A stretch of DNA of 64,000 nt from a virus. Lineage: Duplodnaviria > Heunggongvirae > Uroviricota > Caudoviricetes. Position numbers and translations under genes: made by a program. The notes below the pieces were generated by a model. The model searched no databases, had not been told where the DNA came from, and worked only from the letters and a program-made list of their open reading frames with translations. Below are positions 8,687 to 33,972 of this stretch, in pieces (position 1 is the first letter of the stretch; every line of letters begins with the position of its first letter). The DNA lies in the IMG/VR virus record IMGVR_UViG_3300037484_000445, positions 1 to 64,000 of that record, one strand, 5' to 3'.

Positions 8687-8848
8687 AGGGCACCCCCTAC
8701 GTGAAGCATACAAGCCTTTGTTGGTTCGACTCCAACCTTCCCCACTAGGACTTAGGTCCGATCTACGGGGAAGTCGCTCAATGGTAGAGCAGCGGAAATT
8801 GAAAATCCGTCTCGAAAGAGATTCTCCGCTTTACAACTCGGGTGCCCT
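8687..8848 (+). ncRNA. circularly permuted tRNA-like RNA with conserved module (element A)
   Basis: AGGGCACCC/GGGTGCCCT end stem; GTGAAGC/GCTTTAC; ATACAAGC; T arm, closed acceptor CTTCCCC/GGGGAAG, D arm, anticodon arm in that order. Confidence 0.85.
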
Positions 8849-8933: not shown

Positions 8934-9071
8934 GGGGAACATGAGGCACGGCGCCTCGCCAGACGGTTAATCTGGATGCCAAAAGCATCACTGCCTAGTT
9001 TCTCGGCTCTGCAAGGAGCCTCTCTACTTGGCCTACAAGCACACTTGGTTCGACTCCAAGGTTCCCCGCCA
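8934..9071 (+). ncRNA. tRNA-ended RNA with conserved module inserted in the variable loop (element F)
   Basis: acceptor GGGGAAC/GTTCCCC+GCCA, D arm, CCAGA-CGGTTAA-TCTGG arm, GCAA-capped module, CTACAAGCA, T arm. Confidence 0.8.
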
Positions 9072-10713: not shown

Positions 10714-10850
10714 GAGGGCACCCCCTCATCGTAAGCAAACAAGCACTTTGGGTTCGATTCCCAATTCCCCCTCTAGGACTTCGGTCCGATCATGGGGGAA
10801 AGCCCAGTGGTGGGCAGCAAAGTCATTCGCTTTCAAACTCGGGTGTTCTC
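10714..10850 (+). ncRNA. circularly permuted tRNA-like RNA (element B; no anticodon arm)
   Basis: GAGGGCACCC/GGGTGTTCTC; AAACAAGCA; T arm, TTCCCCC/GGGGGAA closed by a GGAC-TTCG-GTCC hairpin, D arm. Confidence 0.82.
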
Positions 10851-11993: not shown

Positions 11994-12150
11994 GAGTACC
12001 CCCTACGATAGATCAAACAAGCATTTGTGGGTTCGAGTCCCGCCTCCTGCTCTAGGGTGAAAGCCCAACATGCAGGAGTAGCCGAATGGTAAAGGCAATG
12101 GTTATCCAAACCGTGATTAGCATCACATCGATCTAGCAACTCGGGTACTC
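11994..12150 (+). ncRNA. circularly permuted tRNA-like RNA (element C)
   Basis: GAGTACCC/GGGTACTC; TAGATC/GATCTA; AAACAAGCA; T arm, CTCCTGC/GCAGGAG closed by a hairpin, D arm, anticodon arm (TA TCC AA). Confidence 0.87.
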
Positions 12151-12422: not shown

Positions 12423-12544
12423 GAGGCATCCCATCAGAAAGTACATACACGCATTGTCTAACGGTAGGACAATACCCTTCCAAGGTATCCATACGGGTTC
12501 AAATCCTGTTGCTAAAAACGTCGTACTTTCATCTCGGATGCTTC
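12423..12544 (+). ncRNA. module enclosing a normal-order tRNA-Gly(TCC)-like body (element G)
   Basis: GAGGCATCC/GGATGCTTC; GAAAGTAC/GTACTTTC; ATACACGCA; D, anticodon (CT TCC AA) and T arms; acceptor reduced to about 3 bp. Confidence 0.8.
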
Positions 12545-14603: not shown

Positions 14604-15341
14604 ATGACCACATTAGCTCAATTGCTGTCCGTTGAAGGGCAGACCAAGTCTTCTTCCAACGAGCAAATCACTGCTCAGTACCAGCTTCTGCAGAAGGAGC
14701 CTCTTCTCAACGGCGTTGCTCGCACCTACCAGCCATTGGAGGATGCCGGTGAGCGTCTGCCTCCAGAAGGCAACCAGGTTCAGGTGCGGGTCAAGGAAGT
14801 TCTTCGAGAGGTGGCTCGTGTGATGACGCCACTCTACGATCTCACTATCCAGAAGGACTCGGCTAACCAAGGCACTCGTGCTGACGTTGAGGTTGACGGC
14901 AAGGTCCTATTGAAGGATGCTCCCGCCACATATCTCTTGTGGTTGGAGAAGCAGTTGACGGATCTTCACACGGTGATCGTCAAGCTGCCGGTGCTTCCCC
15001 AGACTGAGTCTTGGGAACCAGACCCAACTCAGGCCGCTTACAAGACGCCCGTTGTCGAGACGTCTAGGACGAAGAAAATACCTCGTCCTCTCGAATTATC
15101 CCCGGCAACCAAAGAACATCCTGCTAAGGTTGAGTTGGTTCACGAGGACAAGATCGTAGGGTATTGGTCGACCGTGAAGTATTCGGGCGCCATTCCTCGC
15201 CAGCAGGCACAAGACCTGCGGGAACGAATTGAAAAGCTACAGGCAGCGGTGAAGTTCGCCCGTGAAAAGGCAAACACCATCACCGTGCCAAAGGTCGAAG
15301 CCGGGAACGCCATTTTTGGCTACCTGTTCTCTGACCTGTAA
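14604..15341 (+). CDS. helical/coiled-coil protein directly upstream of a large structured RNA; candidate RNA partner
   Basis: 245 aa, strong codon bias; RNA begins about 2 nt after the stop. Confidence 0.75.
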   Translation: MTTLAQLLSVEGQTKSSSNEQITAQYQLLQKEPLLNGVARTYQPLEDAGERLPPEGNQVQVRVKEVLREVARVMTPLYDLTIQKDSANQGTRADVEVDGKVLLKDAPATYLLWLEKQLTDLHTVIVKLPVLPQTESWEPDPTQAAYKTPVVETSRTKKIPRPLELSPATKEHPAKVELVHEDKIVGYWSTVKYSGAIPRQQAQDLRERIEKLQAAVKFAREKANTITVPKVEAGNAIFGYLFSDL

Positions 15342-15342
15342 A

Positions 15343-15771
15343 GGACCCCCAAGCTTAATCTGAAGCTCCTTGTTACTGGTGCTCTGGTTTGGGACGAAAG
15401 TCCCTGTGTTGGTTCGAATCCAACCGCCCCGACTCCGACGTAAGTCGGTAACTCACCGGGGTGTAGTCCAATGATGGCAAGAGGCACTCCAGCGCCAACT
15501 AAGACTGAATCTTGGGACTAAGCTTAAGCTGAATTCTGTTGCTAACTTCTCTATCGGTTGCCTGCAATTTCCACGAATGTTGGTTCGAATCCGATCTCCC
15601 CAGCAATGCTCATCAGGGCCCACTTCATGGGCATTGCTGGGGGGTGGCCTAATGGCAAGGCGCGTGGGCTTTAGAGCTGATGGGCAATCTTAAACGCCGT
15701 AGTTAGTCAGACAGAACGCACTAACCATGCGAACCTACACGGACCTGGGGACAGGCTAGTTTCCCGGGTCC
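15343..15771 (+). ncRNA. about 430-nt RNA containing two circularly permuted tRNA domains (YrlA-like topology)
   Basis: two T-arm / closed-acceptor / D-arm units (about 15378-15496 and 15571-15667) in a paired scaffold with repeated AAGCTTAA(T/G)CTGAA; terminal hairpin 15741-15771. Confidence 0.8.
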
Positions 15772-17188: not shown

Positions 17189-17453
17189 GGCTTCGAGGCC
17201 GAAAGGAAAGGCACAGTCAAACGGAAACTGCTCCTCGAGAAGAGGGCTTAGTGGAGTAGGATCTGCACACGTTGACAGGGTGCTGCTCGGGTCAACCTCT
17301 ACAGATTCGAATTGGTTGAGGATTTGCGGATGCACCGGGCTGTGCCTCAACTGGTAACGGTTGGGGGTGGGCGGGAGTCGCCACAGCAGGGAAGCGCGTT
17401 TACCTCATCTCTTTGCACTTAGCATGCGGGTTCGAATCCCGTCGAAGCCGCCA
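17189..17453 (+). ncRNA. 265-nt RNA with tRNA ends and a large structured insert
   Basis: GGCTTCG/CGAAGCC+GCCA, D arm, T arm GCGGG-TTCGAAT-CCCGT, about 190 nt of hairpins between them. Confidence 0.72.
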
Positions 17454-17592: not shown

Positions 17593-19479
17593 ATGCCAAA
17601 TGTAGAGAACCTAGGGCCTGCTGAGCGAATCATCAACTCACTACTGACTTACACGGATCACCTTTTTCATGGGCGTCCGGGTATCGTTACGCCGGACACC
17701 ACACTGGCGACAGGTGCCAAGTGGCAGTTTGCCACCTATGTCGAGAATGCCGGCGTCAAGACGGTCTATGCTCTTCGTGAGAAGGGTCCAGTGACAAAGG
17801 TCGAGATTGCTGAGGGTAAGTCCTTGAAGATCAAGGGCACGGCTTTTGGTGTCCTCGACGCCGACGGCATCACCATCAAGGATCCTCGTGGCCGAAAGAT
17901 TGGTGAGTATCGTTCACCTGGCATCTTCAAGGAAGTTGCTACTTGGATGTTCCGTCAGGTCGCTGAGATCTGGAAGTTGGACAACGAGTTTGCTGCTCGT
18001 TGGGCATCTCACGCCTATGCTGAGGATCATCGAGACCTCAAGGTTATTCTGGCTTCGTTCATGCTGGTTCAGACCCGTAAGGGTGACCCCGTATTGGATG
18101 GGGGTAAGGTAGCTTTCCTTGATGAGGACTACCGTGATGTTGGCGAAGCCATGATCTTGCAGAATGGGGCTAAGTACCTGGATCTAAAGATGATCCTTAG
18201 GATTCTGGGGGTGCTAGAGCTTCCTGAGGTTGCGGCGATCGTGCGAGAGCTTGGATTTGGTAACTCGGCACGTAGTAAGTTCTTGGGCCGGTTCCCGAAG
18301 GTTGCTGAGAAGTGGCTTCGGTATCGAGAAGAGAACCCTCAGTTGCTGAAGGGCTTGATTAAGAGCGGTCAAAGGAGCTCGTTGAAGAGACTGGCTACAA
18401 CCGTTCGATACAAGCCGACCACGCCGAAGTTCTTCAAGGATTTGCGTTGGAAGCAGGTCCAGGCCAAGGACGGTCACCGTGGGCTTGCCATTGGCGAGGC
18501 TGTGAGTGCCGCCGAGACTTGGGCGGATCTACGTGAAGAGCAAATCTGCGAGAGGATTGTTCAGTCCAAGATGAACTTCAAGAGGATTGTTGGCCTTTTG
18601 CCGGAAGCTGTCGGACTTTCTCGTGCTGTTATGGCAGCTGCGATCGAGGCTGGTTCACTTTCGGATAAGGACTTGATCCTTTACACGCCGACGCTGGAAG
18701 AGCTTGGTCTGCTCAAGGTTCCAGCTATTCACGGGAAGTGGCAGTTGGCTCTTAAGGCTGCCGAAGACCAGAGGGCTGCTAACGTAGCTACTCGAGTCAA
18801 GGGCAAGGAAACCAAGGAACTACTGCAGGGTGCCGCAGACACGGCTATGCAAAAGGCTGTGGAAGAGGTAATCCGAGGTATGAGGGTCTACTTCATCGTA
18901 GACATCTCGGGCTCGATGGAAAACGCCATTGAGCAGGCCAAGGTCAACATCACCAAGTTCTTGCCGGGTTTCCCGCTCGACAAGATCCACGTTTCGGTCT
19001 TCAATACCTCCGGTCGGGAGATCGCCCTCAAGCATGCTACGGCGGCTGGGGTCGAGAATGCCTTCCGTGGTATCAAGGCCAGCGGTGGAACTAGCTACGG
19101 TGCAGGTGTCATGGCTCTCCATACACACAAGCCTAAGGCTGAAGAAGACGCCCTGTTCTTCTTCATTGGTGACGAGGAGGCCACCCCCTTTGCTCAGGAT
19201 GTAAGGATGTCGGGTATCAATCCGGTAGCCTTCGCTTTCATCAAGGTAAGGGTTAATGGCTACTCTGCTGTTAGGGATACGGCCCAGGCTCTGGGGATCC
19301 CTTGCATCATGGTGGACCAGAACACCTTTGAAGACCCGTATGCTATCCCTCGGACTATTCGCAACTTAATTGCGGCAACTCCTGTGGGACGTGCTCCGGC
19401 CAGGATCCAGCAGCGTGAAACGTTGGTAGACGTGATCCTTAAGACGCCTCTACTGACGAAGCCGGCTTGGGCGGCATAA
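17593..19479 (+). CDS. Ro60/TROVE-like helical protein with C-terminal vWA (MIDAS) domain
   Basis: VDISGSM, GGTSY, IGDEE MIDAS motifs; basic helical N-terminal 400 aa; vWA is firm, TROVE is inferred from architecture and RNA context. Confidence 0.65.
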   Translation: MPNVENLGPAERIINSLLTYTDHLFHGRPGIVTPDTTLATGAKWQFATYVENAGVKTVYALREKGPVTKVEIAEGKSLKIKGTAFGVLDADGITIKDPRGRKIGEYRSPGIFKEVATWMFRQVAEIWKLDNEFAARWASHAYAEDHRDLKVILASFMLVQTRKGDPVLDGGKVAFLDEDYRDVGEAMILQNGAKYLDLKMILRILGVLELPEVAAIVRELGFGNSARSKFLGRFPKVAEKWLRYREENPQLLKGLIKSGQRSSLKRLATTVRYKPTTPKFFKDLRWKQVQAKDGHRGLAIGEAVSAAETWADLREEQICERIVQSKMNFKRIVGLLPEAVGLSRAVMAAAIEAGSLSDKDLILYTPTLEELGLLKVPAIHGKWQLALKAAEDQRAANVATRVKGKETKELLQGAADTAMQKAVEEVIRGMRVYFIVDISGSMENAIEQAKVNITKFLPGFPLDKIHVSVFNTSGREIALKHATAAGVENAFRGIKASGGTSYGAGVMALHTHKPKAEEDALFFFIGDEEATPFAQDVRMSGINPVAFAFIKVRVNGYSAVRDTAQALGIPCIMVDQNTFEDPYAIPRTIRNLIAATPVGRAPARIQQRETLVDVILKTPLLTKPAWAA

Positions 19480-19556
19480 ATCGAAGTTTGAGGGGTCGGT
19501 TGCGTAAAACGTGACCGACCCTTTGCTTCATTACTTTTTAGGTGTATATACACCAC

Positions 19557-20513
19557 ATGTCTTGGCGCGATCTACTCCAGGCGGTTGATGAAACCCTGAG
19601 CTACCCGTGGACGGGTGGACGGACCCTTAGGGGATCCGATGATAGGCGCTTGACCGTTGAGGGCCGACTTCCTAGGGAGTATGGTTGGTGTACTTTCAAG
19701 GTTTTAGGACGTAAGGCTCGCTATACGTCTCCTGCGGAGCCTCAGCCTTTGGGATTCAAAGTTTTGGGTTACCTTGTGGGAGACCGCTTCATTTCGGATG
19801 GTGTTCGTGTTGACCCGGATCCCCAGACCATTGCTACCTTTTCTGAGCCGGTCCACATCTTGGAGGACGGTCTCGATCGATTCGTTAGAATATCCGCTGG
19901 CCGGATCTTTGACGACGGACCCCTGATCTACGATGCTCTGGAGATGCCTTTGGGGCCCGAGGAAGCGGTCCTGGAAGCCTTCTTGGACCAGAAACCATCC
20001 GTAAGCCACATTCCTGGCGTTGTACCGGCTCTAGACGCTGCTTTCAGGCTGGAGACCTATCAGAGAGTCGAGGCCGAGAGACGCCGCCTAGAAGAGGAAC
20101 GTAGGCTTCGGGAAGAGGGAGAGGCCCGGCAGAGAGAAGAGCGTCGCCAGGAGCTGATCAAGCAACTGGGAGACGGCCGAGGGCGAAGGGCTCTGGCTGC
20201 CCAAGACTTTGGCACTGCGGCACGGGCGGCTTTGGCCATTGGCGGGGCCGAGTATCTGGATCACCGTCGCTCTGTCAATCGTGGTGAAATGGTCGTCAGG
20301 TTTAGGCTCAATCACCGTCGGTTCGAGTGCGTTTGTGCTGAAAGGACCCTTGCCATCATTGACTCGGGAATCTGTCTCACGGCTCACTACGATGATCCGA
20401 ACTTTACCGGCGGTACGAAAGGAGACGGCTGGTTCACCTTGGAAAGTCTACCTTCGGTAATTCTCGAGGCAGAGAGGCTAGGCCGCTTGGTGGTGTATAG
20501 ACACGTGGACTAG
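19557..20513 (+). CDS. putative E2-like (UBC-fold) conjugating enzyme with central coiled coil
   Basis: IIDSGICL (cf. E2 G.ICL catalytic Cys) followed by WFTLESLPSVI; next to JAB/Ubl/E1. Confidence 0.6.
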   Translation: MSWRDLLQAVDETLSYPWTGGRTLRGSDDRRLTVEGRLPREYGWCTFKVLGRKARYTSPAEPQPLGFKVLGYLVGDRFISDGVRVDPDPQTIATFSEPVHILEDGLDRFVRISAGRIFDDGPLIYDALEMPLGPEEAVLEAFLDQKPSVSHIPGVVPALDAAFRLETYQRVEAERRRLEEERRLREEGEARQREERRQELIKQLGDGRGRRALAAQDFGTAARAALAIGGAEYLDHRRSVNRGEMVVRFRLNHRRFECVCAERTLAIIDSGICLTAHYDDPNFTGGTKGDGWFTLESLPSVILEAERLGRLVVYRHVD

Positions 20514-20521
20514 GAGACCCT

Positions 20522-20911
20522 ATGCAAGAAGCCGGTGTGTTGGTAGACTTTCGAGGCAACCCGATTTATTGGCATCTGCCAGCAAATCGGGGAACGATAG
20601 TTTTGCCCGATAGTCGAGATCTTTGGAAAGCCTTCGAGGAAAAACGTGACAGGGTTTATGGGTACGCCCATAGTCATCCTGGATCCGGGATGCCCGCGGC
20701 TTCAGCCGAAGATATCACGAGCTTTTCTGCAATTGAGAGAGGCCTTGGGCGTCGACTAGTCTGGTGGATTGCTACGGCCACAGACGTCAAACACTACTTG
20801 TGGCGAGGCCCTGACGAGTACCTTTATCGGGGTTACGCAGACACTATGGTTCCTCATGGCTTTGCTTGGTTGGATGAGCTTAGGAACCTTTCACACTACG
20901 ATGGGAGATGA
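20522..20911 (+). CDS. JAB/MPN (JAMM) metalloprotease, deubiquitinase-like
   Basis: N-terminal EAGVL, HSHPGSGMPAASAED (HxH-x7-S-x2-D). Confidence 0.9.
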   Translation: MQEAGVLVDFRGNPIYWHLPANRGTIVLPDSRDLWKAFEEKRDRVYGYAHSHPGSGMPAASAEDITSFSAIERGLGRRLVWWIATATDVKHYLWRGPDEYLYRGYADTMVPHGFAWLDELRNLSHYDGR

Positions 20912-21168
20912 ATATGGAAGACTTTGAAGCACGGGTAAACGTTACATACATGGGCGCCAACGGAGATCTTCCGGACCCTGTGAAGTACGACGCCACGGAT
21001 GCCGAGATCCTTGGTTGGGTAACGGAAGCCATTCGTACTGGCGGTGTCCCTGGTATTCCGGAAGACGCTAACGCCAACCTGACGGATTTCGTTGTCGATC
21101 GGTTTGGTCCTAGCGAACCGACTCCGTACAACCGCCTGATGGTGCGTCCCAAGACGCCCTTCGGTTGA
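20908..21168 (+). CDS. ubiquitin-like (beta-grasp) protein
   Basis: 86 aa, ends RPKTPFG with a C-terminal Gly; lies between JAB and E1. Confidence 0.75.
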   Translation: MNMEDFEARVNVTYMGANGDLPDPVKYDATDAEILGWVTEAIRTGGVPGIPEDANANLTDFVVDRFGPSEPTPYNRLMVRPKTPFG

Positions 21169-21186
21169 ACACCTTGCGAGGGTACC

Positions 21187-21762
21187 ATGGCCTTGATTAC
21201 AATTGTTGGTGTAGGAGCTCTTGGGTCACACGTGGCTCAATTCCTCCGAAACGCGGAAGCTGAGATCAAAGTCATCGACTTCGATCGTATTGAGACCAAG
21301 AACACGAAGTCTCAATTTCATAGCTCGCCCAACGTGGGCAAGCTCAAGGCGCCCTCGCTTCAGCAGACCTTGAACTTCTTGTTCAAGACGAAAATCACAG
21401 TGGTTTCTCACAAGCTGGTTGATGACAACGTCAATCAGCTTTTGGGTGGATCCAACCTCGTGATCGACTGCTTGGATAACGGTACAGCTCGGAGATTGGT
21501 CCAAACATTCTCTCGTGCTCAAGGAATCCCGTGCTTGCACGGGGCTTTGGCTGCGGATGGAGCTTTTGGTCAAGTTCTCTGGACTGAGCACTTTCGAATC
21601 GACGATGAGGTGGGTGCGGGGGCGGCGACCTGCGAAGATGGAGCTCATCTTCCGTTCATCGCCTTGGTCTCCAGCCTCATGGCACAGTCAGCTCAGACGT
21701 TCCTGCGAAGCGGGAAGAAGTTGAATTTTCAAATACATCCGACGGGCGTAATCTCCGTCTGA
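21187..21762 (+). CDS. E1-like ThiF/MoeB adenylyltransferase
   Basis: VGVGALGS, IDFDRIETKN, DCLDN..R, ATCED (candidate catalytic Cys). Confidence 0.92.
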   Translation: MALITIVGVGALGSHVAQFLRNAEAEIKVIDFDRIETKNTKSQFHSSPNVGKLKAPSLQQTLNFLFKTKITVVSHKLVDDNVNQLLGGSNLVIDCLDNGTARRLVQTFSRAQGIPCLHGALAADGAFGQVLWTEHFRIDDEVGAGAATCEDGAHLPFIALVSSLMAQSAQTFLRSGKKLNFQIHPTGVISV

Positions 21763-21834: not shown

Positions 21835-21967
21835 GGCGGATACGAGGCATGGGCCTCACCAGACACATAATCTGGATGCGAAAGCATCACTGCCTAGCGT
21901 CTCGGTCCCGCAAGGGACCCTTAGTTTAGGCCTACAAGCACACTTGGTTCGATTCCAAGATCCGCCA
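21835..21967 (+). ncRNA. tRNA-ended RNA with module in the variable loop (element H; paralog of F)
   Basis: GGCGGAT/ATCCGCC, CCAGA-CACATAA-TCTGG, GGTCCC-GCAA-GGGACC, CTACAAGCA, T arm. Confidence 0.82.
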
Positions 21968-21969
21968 CC

Positions 21970-22120
21970 TGGCTTCACTCCCACGTAGAGATCAAACACG
22001 CATCTGTTGGTTCGAGTCCAACTTTTTCCGTCACAAACTGGAAAAATAGCCTAACTGGTAAAGGCAATCGTCTGAAACACGATCAATTGTACTACCGGTC
22101 TCAACACTCGAGTGAAGTCA
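21970..22120 (+). ncRNA. circularly permuted tRNA-like RNA (element D)
   Basis: TGGCTTCACTC/GAGTGAAGTCA; GAGATC/GGTCTC; AAACACGCA; T arm, TTTTTCC/GGAAAAA, D arm, anticodon arm CT GAA AC. Confidence 0.85.
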
Positions 22121-22126
22121 AACTAA

Positions 22127-22251
22127 CCCGGTAAAAGGGCAATGGCAGCCCACCTGTTTTAGGGATAGGCATAGTCGCTCGGACGACTCGACCTCGCAAG
22201 GGGTCTCCAGAACGAGCATACAAGCATGTGGTTCGAATCCACATACCGGGA
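22127..22251 (+). ncRNA. tRNA-ended RNA with module in the variable loop (element I)
   Basis: CCCGGTA/TACCGGG, D arm, loop TT TAG GG, GCTCG..ACTC-GACCTC-GCAA-GGGGTC..CGAGC-ATACAAGCA, T arm. Confidence 0.82.
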
Positions 22252-22252
22252 C

Positions 22253-22386
22253 TGAGGGTCACCCCCTCTAGTATACATACAAGCAAACTAGCTCAGTCGG
22301 TAGAGCATCCGCCTCATAAGCAGAACGTCGTCGGTTCAAATCCGACATTTGCACCTTTAGTCGTATACTTTCTCGGGTGACCTTCA
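22253..22386 (+). ncRNA. module enclosing a normal-order tRNA(CAT)-like body (element E)
   Basis: TGAGGGTCACCC/GGGTGACCTTCA; GTATAC/GTATAC; ATACAAGCA; D, anticodon (CT CAT AA) and T arms. Confidence 0.83.
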
Positions 22387-24328: not shown

Positions 24329-25393
24329 CTAGGATTGGGTTGCAACGGGTAGTGTGAAAAAGAAGGTGGATCCCTTACCTGGGGCTGATTCTGGCCATAT
24401 TCTACCTTGGTGGCGCTCTACTATTTTCTTGGCAATGGCTAAACCAATGCCGGTTCCTGGGTATTGCTCGATTGTGTATAGGCGTTGGAACACCCCGAAG
24501 ATGCGATCCTTATGTCGCATATCGAATCCAATACCATTGTCCTGAACGGAGATAATACAGCAGTTATCCTCCCCGGGATTCACAGTAACGACTATCCTGG
24601 GTGTGTCCAGGTTCCTGTACTTGATCGAGTTCGAGAACAGGTTCTGGAACACTTGAGCGATCAAGCTACGATCACCGTAGACCGTTGGAAGGTCACTGGG
24701 TATCGTGAAGATAACGTGGGCCTCTTCAATGCTACGTACAAGGGAGCGCCGGGCCTCTTCAATGGCAAGACCCAAAGGAAAGGTGGCCTCTTTGGACGTT
24801 GGTGTGCGACCAGCTCTGGAGAAGGCCAATAGGTCATCAATCTTGGTCTCCATCCGTTTGGTAGTCTCCACGATCTCTTGTAGGAACTTGTTCCCCTCTT
24901 CGTTTAGATGCCCGGAATACCGCCTCTTAAGCAAGGTTGAGAATCCGGCGATGGCTGTTAGGGGTTCCCGAAGGTCGTGAGAGGCTATGTAAACGAACTG
25001 CTCTAGGTCGTGGTTGTTCTGCTGTAGAGCAGCTTCGGCGCGTTTTTGTTCGGATATGTCTTGGAGCTGAAGCAACAAGGCTGTCATTCGCCCCTCTTTT
25101 CGAACAGCTGAGACGCTAACCGAAGCCCACAGGAACTTCCGATCACTACGTAGGTAGCGTAGTTCTATTCGGTAGTTCTGTGTCCTTCCGCTTTCGAACT
25201 TGTCGATCGTGTCAGTGAACATTTCTAGATCATCGCTGACCACAAGGTCGTTGTGGCTAAGTCGAAGGAGCTCCTCCCTGGTGTGGTTCAGAGCCTGACA
25301 AGCTTGGTGGTTGGCTTCGATGATTTGCCCCGTCTTGGACACGATGAGTTGGGCCACGAAGGAATCGTCGAAAGCCGCCCTTAGAGTTTCCAT
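24329..25393 (-). CDS. PAS sensor histidine kinase
   Basis: PAS/PAC, ASHDLREPL (H-box), QVFQNLFSNSIKY, DNGIG, GTGIGL; GAGGAG SD before ATG 25393. Confidence 0.95.
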   Translation of the reverse strand: METLRAAFDDSFVAQLIVSKTGQIIEANHQACQALNHTREELLRLSHNDLVVSDDLEMFTDTIDKFESGRTQNYRIELRYLRSDRKFLWASVSVSAVRKEGRMTALLLQLQDISEQKRAEAALQQNNHDLEQFVYIASHDLREPLTAIAGFSTLLKRRYSGHLNEEGNKFLQEIVETTKRMETKIDDLLAFSRAGRTPTSKEATFPLGLAIEEARRSLVRSIEEAHVIFTIPSDLPTVYGDRSLIAQVFQNLFSNSIKYRNLDTPRIVVTVNPGEDNCCIISVQDNGIGFDMRHKDRIFGVFQRLYTIEQYPGTGIGLAIAKKIVERHQGRIWPESAPGKGSTFFFTLPVATQS

Positions 25394-25395
25394 GT

Positions 25396-26277
25396 CTATC
25401 TCCTCTCGGATGTGCCTACACTCCTTGAGGGCCCTCCCTGGTGTGCGAACCATGCTACGGCCCCTAAGAGAGCCAATACTACTGCAACCAAGCCAGCGAG
25501 TACAACGACATTGTGACGCGTCAGTTTGAGGCCTTTGGCTTCCGGGTTGATACTCGTTAGAGAGCTTCTTGAGATCCTTTCGACATCCTTGACACGGTGA
25601 TCGAGACCATCAATGCGAGCCTTTACGGATAGTTGCGTACCTGAACCCAACAGTTCGGTTTGCAGGGCTTCAATGACCTTGCTGGTGTGTTCGTCCCGAG
25701 CATTCTTTTCTTCGAGCTGGGCCGATAGGCGCTGAAGTTCTGTGAATAGGTGTCTCGAGATGTCCGCGACGGCGGAAGTGGTCGCCACGGTTGAAGCTTG
25801 GATGGCTACGTGCTCTCCACTTTGGTGAGCCGTGACCATATTAGCTTTGGCTCGTTCTAGTGCGTGCATTGAGGCAGCCTTGTCCGTCGGTACCCGTATA
25901 GTTCGATGATGCTTCTCGACGGCAAAGATGATTCGACGGAAGATGTCTTCCTCGTTGGTGTAGTCCTTGAGAATGTAATCCGCGGCCCCTGCTTTGATCA
26001 TGTCTAGGGCTAGGCCACGATCCTTGTTGTGCGTCATCACGATGACGGGCACATCAGGGTACCGATCACTCAGTTTCTGAAAGGTTTCTTTTCCAGTTGA
26101 GTCAGGCAACTGTAGGTCGAGTATTACACAATCGATGTTTCGACTATCAAGGTAACGGAAAGCCGTCTCCAGACTATTAGCCTCTCGGAACTTGGCTTCG
26201 TTTTGGAATCGACTCTCAAGCAAGTACCTGAGAAGGTCTCGGTCTGTGGGGTTGTCTTCGACTATTAGGATACGCAT
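25396..26277 (-). CDS. response regulator receiver with coiled coil and C-terminal TM helix
   Basis: ILIVEDN, ILDLQLPD, DYILK; VVVLAGLVAVVLALLGAVAW. Confidence 0.85.
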   Translation of the reverse strand: MRILIVEDNPTDRDLLRYLLESRFQNEAKFREANSLETAFRYLDSRNIDCVILDLQLPDSTGKETFQKLSDRYPDVPVIVMTHNKDRGLALDMIKAGAADYILKDYTNEEDIFRRIIFAVEKHHRTIRVPTDKAASMHALERAKANMVTAHQSGEHVAIQASTVATTSAVADISRHLFTELQRLSAQLEEKNARDEHTSKVIEALQTELLGSGTQLSVKARIDGLDHRVKDVERISRSSLTSINPEAKGLKLTRHNVVVLAGLVAVVLALLGAVAWFAHQGGPSRSVGTSERR

Positions 26278-28830: not shown

Positions 28831-29128
28831 TCTTAGCCGTTGGTCGGTCTGTGAACCTTTCCCCCACAGGCATCACAGGGCAAGAGGGTGTCACGGTCTT
28901 CCAGTCTTGGTAAGCCGCAGAATCATTCGACTTTGTGACGCTCTTCTATGGATATCCACACCTAACACAGTTCAACGAAAGAATTTCTTGATGCTGTTGA
29001 GTTCTCGGTGTATAGCTGTCCTTGAAGGATCGCGCTCACGCTTGGATCTTTCAAGGAAACCTAGGAGTGCAGGCCTATACCTGTACCGTACAGCTAAACG
29101 CACCCGTAAGGGTTTGGTAAGGCTGAGG
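28831..29128 (+). ncRNA. candidate multibranch structured RNA of about 300 nt
   Basis: closing TCTTAGCC/GGCTGAGG and several long internal helices in an intergenic region. Confidence 0.45.
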
Positions 29129-29215
29129 ACATCGACCCAGGAACGCAATAGATTTGGGACCCGTCCAGTCCGCGTCAATTGCAAACCCCCTCGAATGTGT
29201 ACGGAGGAATCTCCT

Positions 29216-30628
29216 ATGGAGTTTCTAGCCCAGCTCTCTCATGAGACATTGGATCATTCTCGCTCGAATACCCCTCACCTTGTCCTTACCCTAAAGGCTC
29301 CGGCCTTGGATTGGATCAAGAAGAGGCCCTCACTTTGCGTCGTGCCTGCGGTAGACCTTTCAGGCTCAATGAGAGGGGACAAGCTGGAGTATGCTCGGAA
29401 GAGCTTGCATAAGCTCGTTGACCAGCTACAGCCTGGAGATGTCACGGGCCTAGTTGCCTTCGAAAGTCGAGTCCATCTCTTGGTTCAACCAGCTGAGGTG
29501 ACCGCGGCTCATAAGTCTCGGATGAAGGACGCTATCAACCGCTTGAAGATCATGGGTGGTACGGATCTCTGTGGTGGGGCCCTTCAGGCACTCGAAGTAG
29601 TGAAGGGTTTGGACTTGCCAGCCAAGTTCATCAAGCGGGTTATTCTGTTCACGGATGGTCAACCCACGGATGGGGTCACCAACCCCGATCAGATCTTGAG
29701 TTTGGTTGAAAGCAATCGCGGATCGGTTACTCTTAGTGCCTTTGGCTACGGGGCCATCGGGGGTGGAACTTGGGGTGGCTGTGATCCCGAGTTTATGGAG
29801 AATCTATCCCAGCGTGGTCAAGGGAACTATGCCTTCATACAGGACCCTGATAGCGCTCTGACGGCGTTTGGTCGGGAGCTTGGAGGGTTGATGTCCACCT
29901 ACGCCCAAGACCTTCTTGTGACGATTGAGCCTTTGAATGGCCATAGGGTCAGCAAGGTCCTTACCGATGTTCCCGTCGACCGTAACGCCTTAGGAGAGAT
30001 CGAGTTCAAGGTTTCGGACATCATGTCTGAGGAAACCCGACACTTCGTATTCGAGACCGAACTAATTCCAGGTAAGAGTGGTCCTCGGGCTGTGAATTTG
30101 TTCAATGTGCGACTCGTGTATTCTGCCCTTACGGATAAGGGTACTCGGGAAACAAAAACCCTTGAAACGAAGGCTAAGGCTCAGTTCGTCAATCCCGGTG
30201 AAGAACAGAAAGATCCCAGTAAGGCTTTGGATGAGGTCATAGCCTTAGCACAGGTCTTTAGGGCTCAGATCGAGGCCGAAGAACAAGCTAAGAAGGGCAA
30301 CTATGTTGGAGCCGTTGAGACGATGAGCGTGGTCTCTAAGGGGTTCCAGCAACGTGGTCTCATGGCAGCAAACAAGGTTGCCCAGAATATAGGCACTCGT
30401 CTTGGAGACGCCAACCTTTATGCCAGCAACACCTCCTACTTGAGGAGCATGTCGTCGGGGGGTCGCCGGTCTTACGGTCTCAACTCGGCAGATGCTGAAG
30501 CCCAGGGCGATCTTGAGATGATTCTAGGTTCCCTAGGCAATGATGCCATCAACACCATGTCCGCAGAATTTGCGTCCAATGAGCCTAAACCTTCTTTGAA
30601 GGTCGATATCCCGAACAAGTCAGACTAA
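29216..30628 (+). CDS. vWA domain protein (YfbK/CLCA-like)
   Basis: VDLSGSM, GGTDL, LFTDGQP, G.GNY.FI; GGAGG SD before ATG 29216. Confidence 0.9.
   Translation: MEFLAQLSHETLDHSRSNTPHLVLTLKAPALDWIKKRPSLCVVPAVDLSGSMRGDKLEYARKSLHKLVDQLQPGDVTGLVAFESRVHLLVQPAEVTAAHKSRMKDAINRLKIMGGTDLCGGALQALEVVKGLDLPAKFIKRVILFTDGQPTDGVTNPDQILSLVESNRGSVTLSAFGYGAIGGGTWGGCDPEFMENLSQRGQGNYAFIQDPDSALTAFGRELGGLMSTYAQDLLVTIEPLNGHRVSKVLTDVPVDRNALGEIEFKVSDIMSEETRHFVFETELIPGKSGPRAVNLFNVRLVYSALTDKGTRETKTLETKAKAQFVNPGEEQKDPSKALDEVIALAQVFRAQIEAEEQAKKGNYVGAVETMSVVSKGFQQRGLMAANKVAQNIGTRLGDANLYASNTSYLRSMSSGGRRSYGLNSADAEAQGDLEMILGSLGNDAINTMSAEFASNEPKPSLKVDIPNKSD

Positions 30629-32355: not shown

Positions 32356-33972
<1,617 letters not shown>

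Follow-up and report, generated by a model that had tools for sequence, protein, structure and literature searches.

What function may be served by a tRNA body whose acceptor end is enclosed in a paired stem? The question is raised by two RNAs predicted in the window, the whole stretch of DNA analysed here, which comprises bases 1-64000 of a virus contig of 451,925 bases (a 452-kb phage). They are referred to as clamped tRNA-mimic RNA 1 (element 1; 12423..12544) and clamped tRNA-mimic RNA 2 (element 2; 22253..22386). Both lie on the plus strand in a region rich in tRNA genes, as ARAGORN called 48 tRNAs and one transfer-messenger RNA (tmRNA), all between 7.5 and 27.5 kb of the window. As shown below by comparison of related sequences, a terminal stem replaces the outer acceptor stem of these RNAs, which retain the elbow and the form of the anticodon arm while the letters of the anticodon drift, and the RNAs travel with an operon headed by the gene of a putative Ro60-like protein. 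Because the conserved terminal stem takes the place of the outer acceptor stem, no CCA end is free. The RNAs probably act as tethered decoys and not as functional tRNAs.

Structure of the two clamped RNAs

The terminal stem of element 1 consists of two helices, P1 (12423-12431/12536-12544, 9 bp) and P2 (12437-12444/12523-12530, 8 bp), which are separated by a 5x5 internal loop. The 5′ half of this module (12423..12453) comprises the 5′ strand of P1, the internal loop, the 5′ strand of P2 and the ATACACGCA motif (ACACGCA, 12447-12453), while the 3′ half (12513..12544) contains an A-rich linker, the 3′ strand of P2, the loop strand ATCTC and the 3′ strand of P1. The tRNA-like body (12451..12512) begins with the GCA of the motif (12451-12453), which faces TGC at 12510-12512 and thus could form a 3-bp acceptor-like helix. 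It continues with a D arm (stem 12456-12459/12467-12470), an anticodon arm (stem 12472-12476/12484-12488, loop CTTCCAA with the triplet TCC at 12479-12481), a variable loop of 4 nucleotides (nt) and a T arm (stem 12493-12497/12505-12509). The element is located between two tRNA genes, 3 nt past tRNA-Pro and 8 nt ahead of tRNA-Leu. Element 2, the last of four module RNAs downstream of the gene for an E1-like enzyme, has a P1 of 12 bp (22253-22264/22375-22386) and a P2 of 7 bp (22270-22276/22363-22369), again with a 5x5 loop. Its putative acceptor-like helix pairs GCAAA (22283-22287) with TTTGC (22348-22352) over 5 bp and is followed by a C.A mismatch. The D, anticodon and T arms are arranged in normal order, the anticodon arm having a CTCATAA loop (CAT at 22315-22317) and one C.A mismatch. 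No further copies of this topology were found in the phage genome. Orthologues exist in a close relative (L061), to which element 1 is 95% and element 2 85.5% identical.

Folding yielded z-scores of -3.84 for element 1 and -4.95 for element 2, and none of 200 shuffled sequences folded equally well, which argues against a chance structure. Except for one terminal pair, the pair probabilities within P1 and P2 ranged from 0.96 to 1.0. Together with the covariation of the family described below, these data bear out the proposal of an earlier note on this DNA that in both elements the arms of a normally ordered tRNA body (D, anticodon, T) are clamped by P1 and P2. The acceptor-like helix is thermodynamically weak (approximately 0.3 in element 2, absent from the best fold of element 1), and the case for it is a comparative one. 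The expectation that tRNA scanners would call both elements pseudo-tRNAs turned out to be half right. ARAGORN passed over element 1 and classified element 2 as a normal tRNA-Met(CAT) at 22282-22355, so that a simple pseudo-tRNA label was not obtained. The Rfam tRNA model assigned 42 bits to element 1, covering only model positions 5-66, and 51 bits to element 2 over the whole model.

A family of related RNAs

Loci around homologues of the 628-aa Ro60-like gene were fetched, and RNAs in which D and T arms come after the motif were collected. In these protein-anchored loci, which belong to phages and Myxococcota, approximately 67 distinct members were found. Across an alignment of 40 members, which served as training sequences and 33 of which had been picked for P1 pairing, 94% of the cells were paired, as opposed to 29-46% in slid controls, and two-sided changes occurred in 26 of the 30 pairs, including all nine of P1 and all seven of P2. 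All five helices (P1, P2, D, anticodon and T) were recovered by RNAalifold, the covariation term being -9.4 kcal/mol. Full-length hits of the model among sequences held out from training retained P1 and P2 as well. Invariant columns were ACA.GC, the T-loop and CTC; the terminal stem harbors two loops conserved in sequence, CUC(G) and YACA(A/C)GC. With the family model, most true members scored 72-121 bits, and ordinary tRNAs did not exceed approximately 71. Element 1 received 80.8 bits and element 2 107.6 bits. Most matches to the motif alone in viral contigs were ordinary tRNAs and were rejected, as was a borderline 71-bit match in another genome.

The two elements reside in a tRNA array and score as a tRNA or a partial tRNA, as would be expected of decayed tRNA pseudogenes with chance pairing of their flanks. 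The comparative data refute this explanation: the covariation is family-wide, the invariant motifs are not those of tRNAs, the scores exceed those of ordinary tRNAs, and members are also located beside the operon in chromosomes devoid of tRNA arrays.

In 32 of the 40 members, the GC of the motif and a downstream GC are in register, while the length of the helix varies from 2 to 7 bp. This supports the suggestion that the motif supplies the 5′ strand of a shortened acceptor helix, and since the register holds while the length varies, the short acceptor-like helix can be regarded as a feature of the family. Of 59 parsed members, 16 had a helix of 3 bp, 20 one of 5-6 bp and 17 one of 7 bp, the latter being perfect in only one to three members; like other counts from this parsing, these are approximate, as the rows L020, L028, L033, L041 and L079 were mis-anchored. 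The terminal flanks are conserved more than the acceptor helix. In some members the module and the stems are kept and the T loop is degenerate (L009:16630, L020:14874, L011:17350, L040:17306, L022:11689, L001:15503, L053:15578 and L083:21968), so that not every copy needs the elbow.

Decoding or mimicry

The elbow nucleotides of the D and T arms and the anticodon arm with its 5-bp stem and 7-nt loop are conserved as in functional tRNAs. What is missing is an acceptor stem of 7 bp that ends in a free NCCA: the ends of the two window RNAs are enclosed, and the stem has 3 bp in one and 5 bp with an added mismatch in the other. Nor is the anticodon constrained in the manner of a functional tRNA. 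In the anticodon loop Y32, U33 and R37 were kept in 43 of 60 members, compared to 818 of 898 tRNAs of the same loci. The 54 anticodon loops examined contained 28 different triplets, and A34 triplets other than ACG were enriched (8 of 54 members versus 12 of 898 tRNAs). Members whose bodies were at least 80% identical shared the triplet in only 6 of 27 pairs, compared to 65 of 92 pairs of canonical tRNAs, the pairs not being independent of each other. This whole-body comparison was used in place of one based on a shared anticodon stem alone, which did not discriminate (6/44 versus 141/1153). Normal tRNAs for TCC and CAT are already present in the phage. From the variable and rarely perfect acceptor-like helix and the drifting anticodon we concluded that the sequences represent a family of non-decoding tRNA mimics and not of pre-tRNAs.

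These data also bear on the possibility that the RNAs are caged pre-tRNAs, from which RNase P and 3′ trimming strip the module to release a usable tRNA. Seven acceptor positions, in some cases followed by ACCA or GCCA, are present in approximately 17 of 59 members, so that RNase P could cut this minority with NCCA-like tails; moreover, RNase P cleaves the YrlA RNA of Mycobacterium smegmatis, whose stem has 7 bp, and CCA is added to it (PMC4201824), and both window anticodons are the same in the close relative. Most members, however, have helices of 3-6 bp or mismatches, their anticodons are unconstrained, and their flanks are the better conserved part. With its 3 bp, element 1 cannot, as judged from its sequence, yield a normal tRNA, and release of a standard tRNA from element 2, which has six positions including the mismatch and no CCA, is unlikely. 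We therefore regard caged pre-tRNAs as a very improbable explanation of the family.

A conserved loop shape with variable sequence, and several different loops per genome, would also suit a sensor, in which the intact RNA keeps the machine formed by the Ro60-like protein and the ubiquitin-like (Ubl) gene set switched off until a host tRNase cuts the anticodon loop and tagging begins. Gating by Y RNAs is known for Rsr (PMC4201824). Some sister RNAs, however, possess no anticodon loop at all, and such a gate seems to us quite improbable. Whatever their role, non-decoding mimics distort phage tRNA and anticodon inventories, since ARAGORN labelled about two thirds of the members (44 of 67) as tRNAs.

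The Ro60-like protein and its operon

The likely partner of the module is a protein of 628 aa encoded on the same strand (17593..19479, +), 5.0 kb from element 1 and 2.8 kb from element 2. It is composed of a beta-rich N-terminus, helical repeats and a C-terminal vWA domain. Its structural model had a mean predicted local distance difference test score (pLDDT) of 85.5 and a predicted template modelling score (pTM) of 0.54. In a Foldseek search with this model, ranks 1-7 were all Ro60/TROVE structures (E values 6e-8 to 1e-5), the top match being 9kop. A VIA-align superposition with Xenopus Ro60 (1yvp) aligned 366 residues with a Z score of 11.2 and a root mean square deviation of 16.6. On the basis of the model, the product was taken as a very divergent Ro60-like protein.

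Its gene heads a set of five genes; beside it, each of the other four was found in 64-74 of 83 loci, with the gene order conserved. The second gene (19542..20513, +) encodes a conserved protein of unknown function (323 aa) with OB-like N-terminal barrels, a long helix and a C-terminal domain containing the invariant Cys278. Fold matches of this protein were only weakly OB-like (best Z score 5.0) and did not include an E2, and a search of the ESM Atlas gave no usable match. Prediction of a complex between the Ro60-like and the 323-aa protein (score 0.26, mark 0.32) provided evidence neither way. Then follow a JAB-like peptidase (20522..20911, +), assigned by weak profile matches and a conserved HsH..S..D motif, a probable Ubl protein (20908..21168, +) ending with RPKTPFG, for which the C-terminal Gly and the context speak, and a ThiF/E1-like activating enzyme (21187..21762, +). 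A gene of the TilS, TtcA or TtuA families was not found in the phage genome; thus, a phage-encoded role of the Ubl protein in tRNA thiolation is unsupported.

The order of the operon (window 17593-21762) is kept in huge phages and Myxococcota chromosomes, a distribution which suggests a myxobacterial host for the phage. In whole Myxococcota genomes, strong matches to the RNA were found solely at the operon. The cultured species Paraliomyxa miuraensis harbors one RNA of the clamped topology 8 nt past the E1 stop codon, which makes the system testable, and two other genomes contain three clamped RNAs ahead of the Ro60-like gene. We also searched viruses with the RNA motif only. Members were detected in 14 virus records, 11 of which encode the protein family, several of them in distant forms (approximately 21% identity) that have 323-aa-like and E1 genes in their vicinity. 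Two of the three remaining records are small fragments. By contrast, the protein family was absent from all 11 control records, which carry ordinary tRNAs. Among 121 sampled genomes of the phylum of Paraliomyxa, the starting genome was the only one in which the protein was detected, the RNA search having scored only 27 candidates per genome. Such a patchy occurrence in bacteria would suit a mobile locus or one related to defence.

A portable module

The unit composed of P1, the CUC loop, P2 and ACA(A/C)GC is attached to the acceptor end in the two elements and to other tRNA sites elsewhere, which confirms the notion that it is portable. In the window and in related loci, the same module was found at the variable-loop position of tRNA bodies that are permuted or have normal ends. 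Seven sister RNAs of the phage genome carry it in other arrangements. Four of them precede element 1 on the plus strand: one with a circularly permuted body (8687..8848), which gave a weak match to YrlA (29.4 bits at a cut-off of 69), one with normal ends and the module in the variable region (8934..9071), and two with permuted bodies (10714..10850 and 11994..12150). The other three are arranged in tandem between the E1 gene and element 2 (21835..22251, +; 21835-21967, 21970-22120 and 22127-22251). About half of the clamped RNAs are immediately preceded by a module RNA whose motif lies directly before the T arm, with which it forms a tandem pair, as in window 22127-22386 and many related loci. 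In a further topology the module is opened between the D and anticodon arms (L146:2735-2850; L141, minus strand, 13101 and 13673; L186:2522-2700); these RNAs adjoin a more distant Ro-like family of approximately 510-570 aa. One genome with the module on several tRNA faces constitutes a natural experiment on the purpose of the tRNA domain of bacterial Y RNAs.

Proposed mechanism

Y RNAs bind Ro60 via their terminal stem, while the other end tethers an effector (PMC4201824; 10.1101/312249). By analogy, the RNAs studied here would be cut from the transcript of the tRNA array through processing of neighbouring tRNAs, retain the clamp and be bound via the module by the Ro60-like protein. With tRNA-Pro and tRNA-Leu so close on either side of element 1, neighbour processing would therefore give ends near P1. 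We think it quite probable that the RNAs are processed with the clamp kept and bound in the way Y RNAs bind Ro60, and the two first steps together, a mimic with a clamp and its binding to the Ro60-like protein, are likely in our judgement. It is the genomic linkage that points to RNA binding by this protein, and expression as well as the following steps are likewise inferred from the sequences. A scan for sigma-70 promoters and terminators gave results at chance level.

In the clamped topology the protein would sit at the acceptor end, and the elbow and anticodon arm would face outward, while the sister topologies may expose other faces, including the acceptor arm. The exposed surface might attract, as a bait, host proteins which recognise the elbow or the anticodon arm, for instance tRNA-cleaving defence nucleases, and the particle might deliver them to the co-encoded E1/Ubl/JAB set to be tagged or disabled. 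This bait-and-tag step is put forward only tentatively. More speculative still is the idea that the module on different tRNA faces forms a panel of tRNA baits and that the Ro60-like particle acts as an RNA-guided substrate adaptor, equivalent to an E3, for Ubl tagging directed against tRNA-targeting defences.

Several observations weigh against the proposed mechanism as a whole. Neither a bait target nor an E2 was identified. The drift of the anticodon fits neutrality as well as baiting. The motif GNCGAAN0-1G, which is bound by Ro proteins, occurred in none of 59 members, and some operon loci show no RNA of the clamped topology within 10 kb. Counts for P1 are inflated by the selection of training sequences on P1 pairing. 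In approximately 7 of 67 members the T loop is degenerate and, therefore, the elbow is not always kept. The 628-aa protein does not match Pfam TROVE, sequence searches of PDB, Pfam and NCBIfam established no link to TROVE, and the likeness of its model to Ro60 is accompanied by low TM-scores (approximately 0.2). Hence the term Ro-like protein used in the earlier note is backed by the fold search, though not by Pfam TROVE.

A decay or repair particle similar to RYPER has to be considered as well. In such a particle the RNA would tether the Ro60-like ring to the PNPase of the host or to the RtcB or CCA enzyme of the phage; the tRNA fold would only stabilise the RNA, and the Ubl set would act separately or only regulate the particle. 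Tethering is known for Rsr and Yrn1, with the same order of arms (PMC4201824), and for Ro60 of phage phiLo (PMC12135203). The phage encodes RtcB (G000:C1:303693-304952) and an enzyme of the PolyA_pol/CCA family (274759-275133), and a stabilising role would account for the free anticodon and the interchangeable topologies. Both genes are, however, more than 250 kb away, whereas the Ubl genes are constant neighbours, and the complete geometry of the anticodon arm would be left unexplained. Taken together, we hold a decay or repair particle to be unlikely and prefer tethered decoys.

Other features of the window

Further structured RNAs and genes were noticed. At 14604-15771 a DUF7873 gene precedes a long structured RNA, whose two domains containing T arms lack ACA(A/C)GC. 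Just upstream of the Ro60-like gene, at 17189-17453, there is an RNA of 265 nt with a tRNA acceptor stem, a T arm, CCA and a large structured insert. Genes for a histidine kinase and a response regulator (24329-26277, minus strand) lie within the tRNA region and are also present in L061. The tmRNA of the phage (27073-27435) encodes the tag ANDNSIADRLVA. A second vWA protein and a Cpn60 chaperonin are encoded at 28907-30628 and 32359-33972, respectively.

Comparison with known systems

No publication that describes this RNA family or connects it with Ubl genes was found in a literature search, although an earlier mention is not excluded; the operon is apparently undescribed. With canonical tRNAs and pre-tRNAs the family has in common the three arms (D, anticodon and T), the T-loop consensus, G18G19 and the Levitt pair, which is A15:U48 in one window RNA and G15:C48 in the other. 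Differences lie in the acceptor helix, which in the family has 2-7 bp, in the conserved paired flanks and the free anticodon of the family, and in CCA, which is not encoded in the window RNAs.

The phiRo60 system of the Thermus phage phiLo (PMC12135203) likewise combines a phage-encoded protein of the Ro60 fold, represented by the top Foldseek match 9kop, with adjacent structured RNAs. Its RNAs Yrl1 and Yrl2, however, carry a CGAA motif and recruit PNPase, and neither a tRNA body nor a Ubl operon is described in the accessible portion of that report.

YrlA (RF02553; PMC4201824; 10.1101/312249) resembles the RNAs in placing a tRNA-mimic domain on a terminal stem-loop-stem module beside a Ro60-like gene, in phages too, and a YUAY/YUAC-like stretch follows the second helix. 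YrlA is, however, permuted (T arm, closed acceptor stem, D arm), has no anticodon loop and contains GNCGAAN0-1G close to its 5′ end, whereas the present RNAs are in normal order with an anticodon loop and a blocked acceptor end and do not possess this motif. The Rfam model of YrlA (gathering threshold 69 bits) matched neither element, and its best hit in the phage genome reached 29.4 bits (8701-8818).

The Rsr-bound Yrn1 of Deinococcus radiodurans (PMC4201824) also has paired 5′ and 3′ ends enclosing tRNA-like arms, with a stem-loop between D and T in the position of the anticodon, and its gene lies close to one of the Ro60 type and is transcribed together with a tRNA. By contrast, the D arm of Yrn1 is incomplete, its loop has 6 nt, and its Ro-binding helix is metazoan-like. 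The RNAs described here have full D, anticodon and T arms with 7 nt in the anticodon loop, they conserve other motifs, and their partner has diverged much further and is linked with Ubl genes. The bulged metazoan-like helix with a 5′ strand of the GGUCCGA type was not recovered, as the 5′ strands of P1 vary freely and the conserved letters are ACA.GC and, on the 3′ side, CTC(G). Thus, the RNAs probably work like Y RNAs, yet they are members of neither YrlA nor Yrn1, whose motifs they lack. They represent a third well-formed route to a Ro60-type tRNA mimic, one in which the elbow and anticodon arm are exposed and the acceptor end is blocked.
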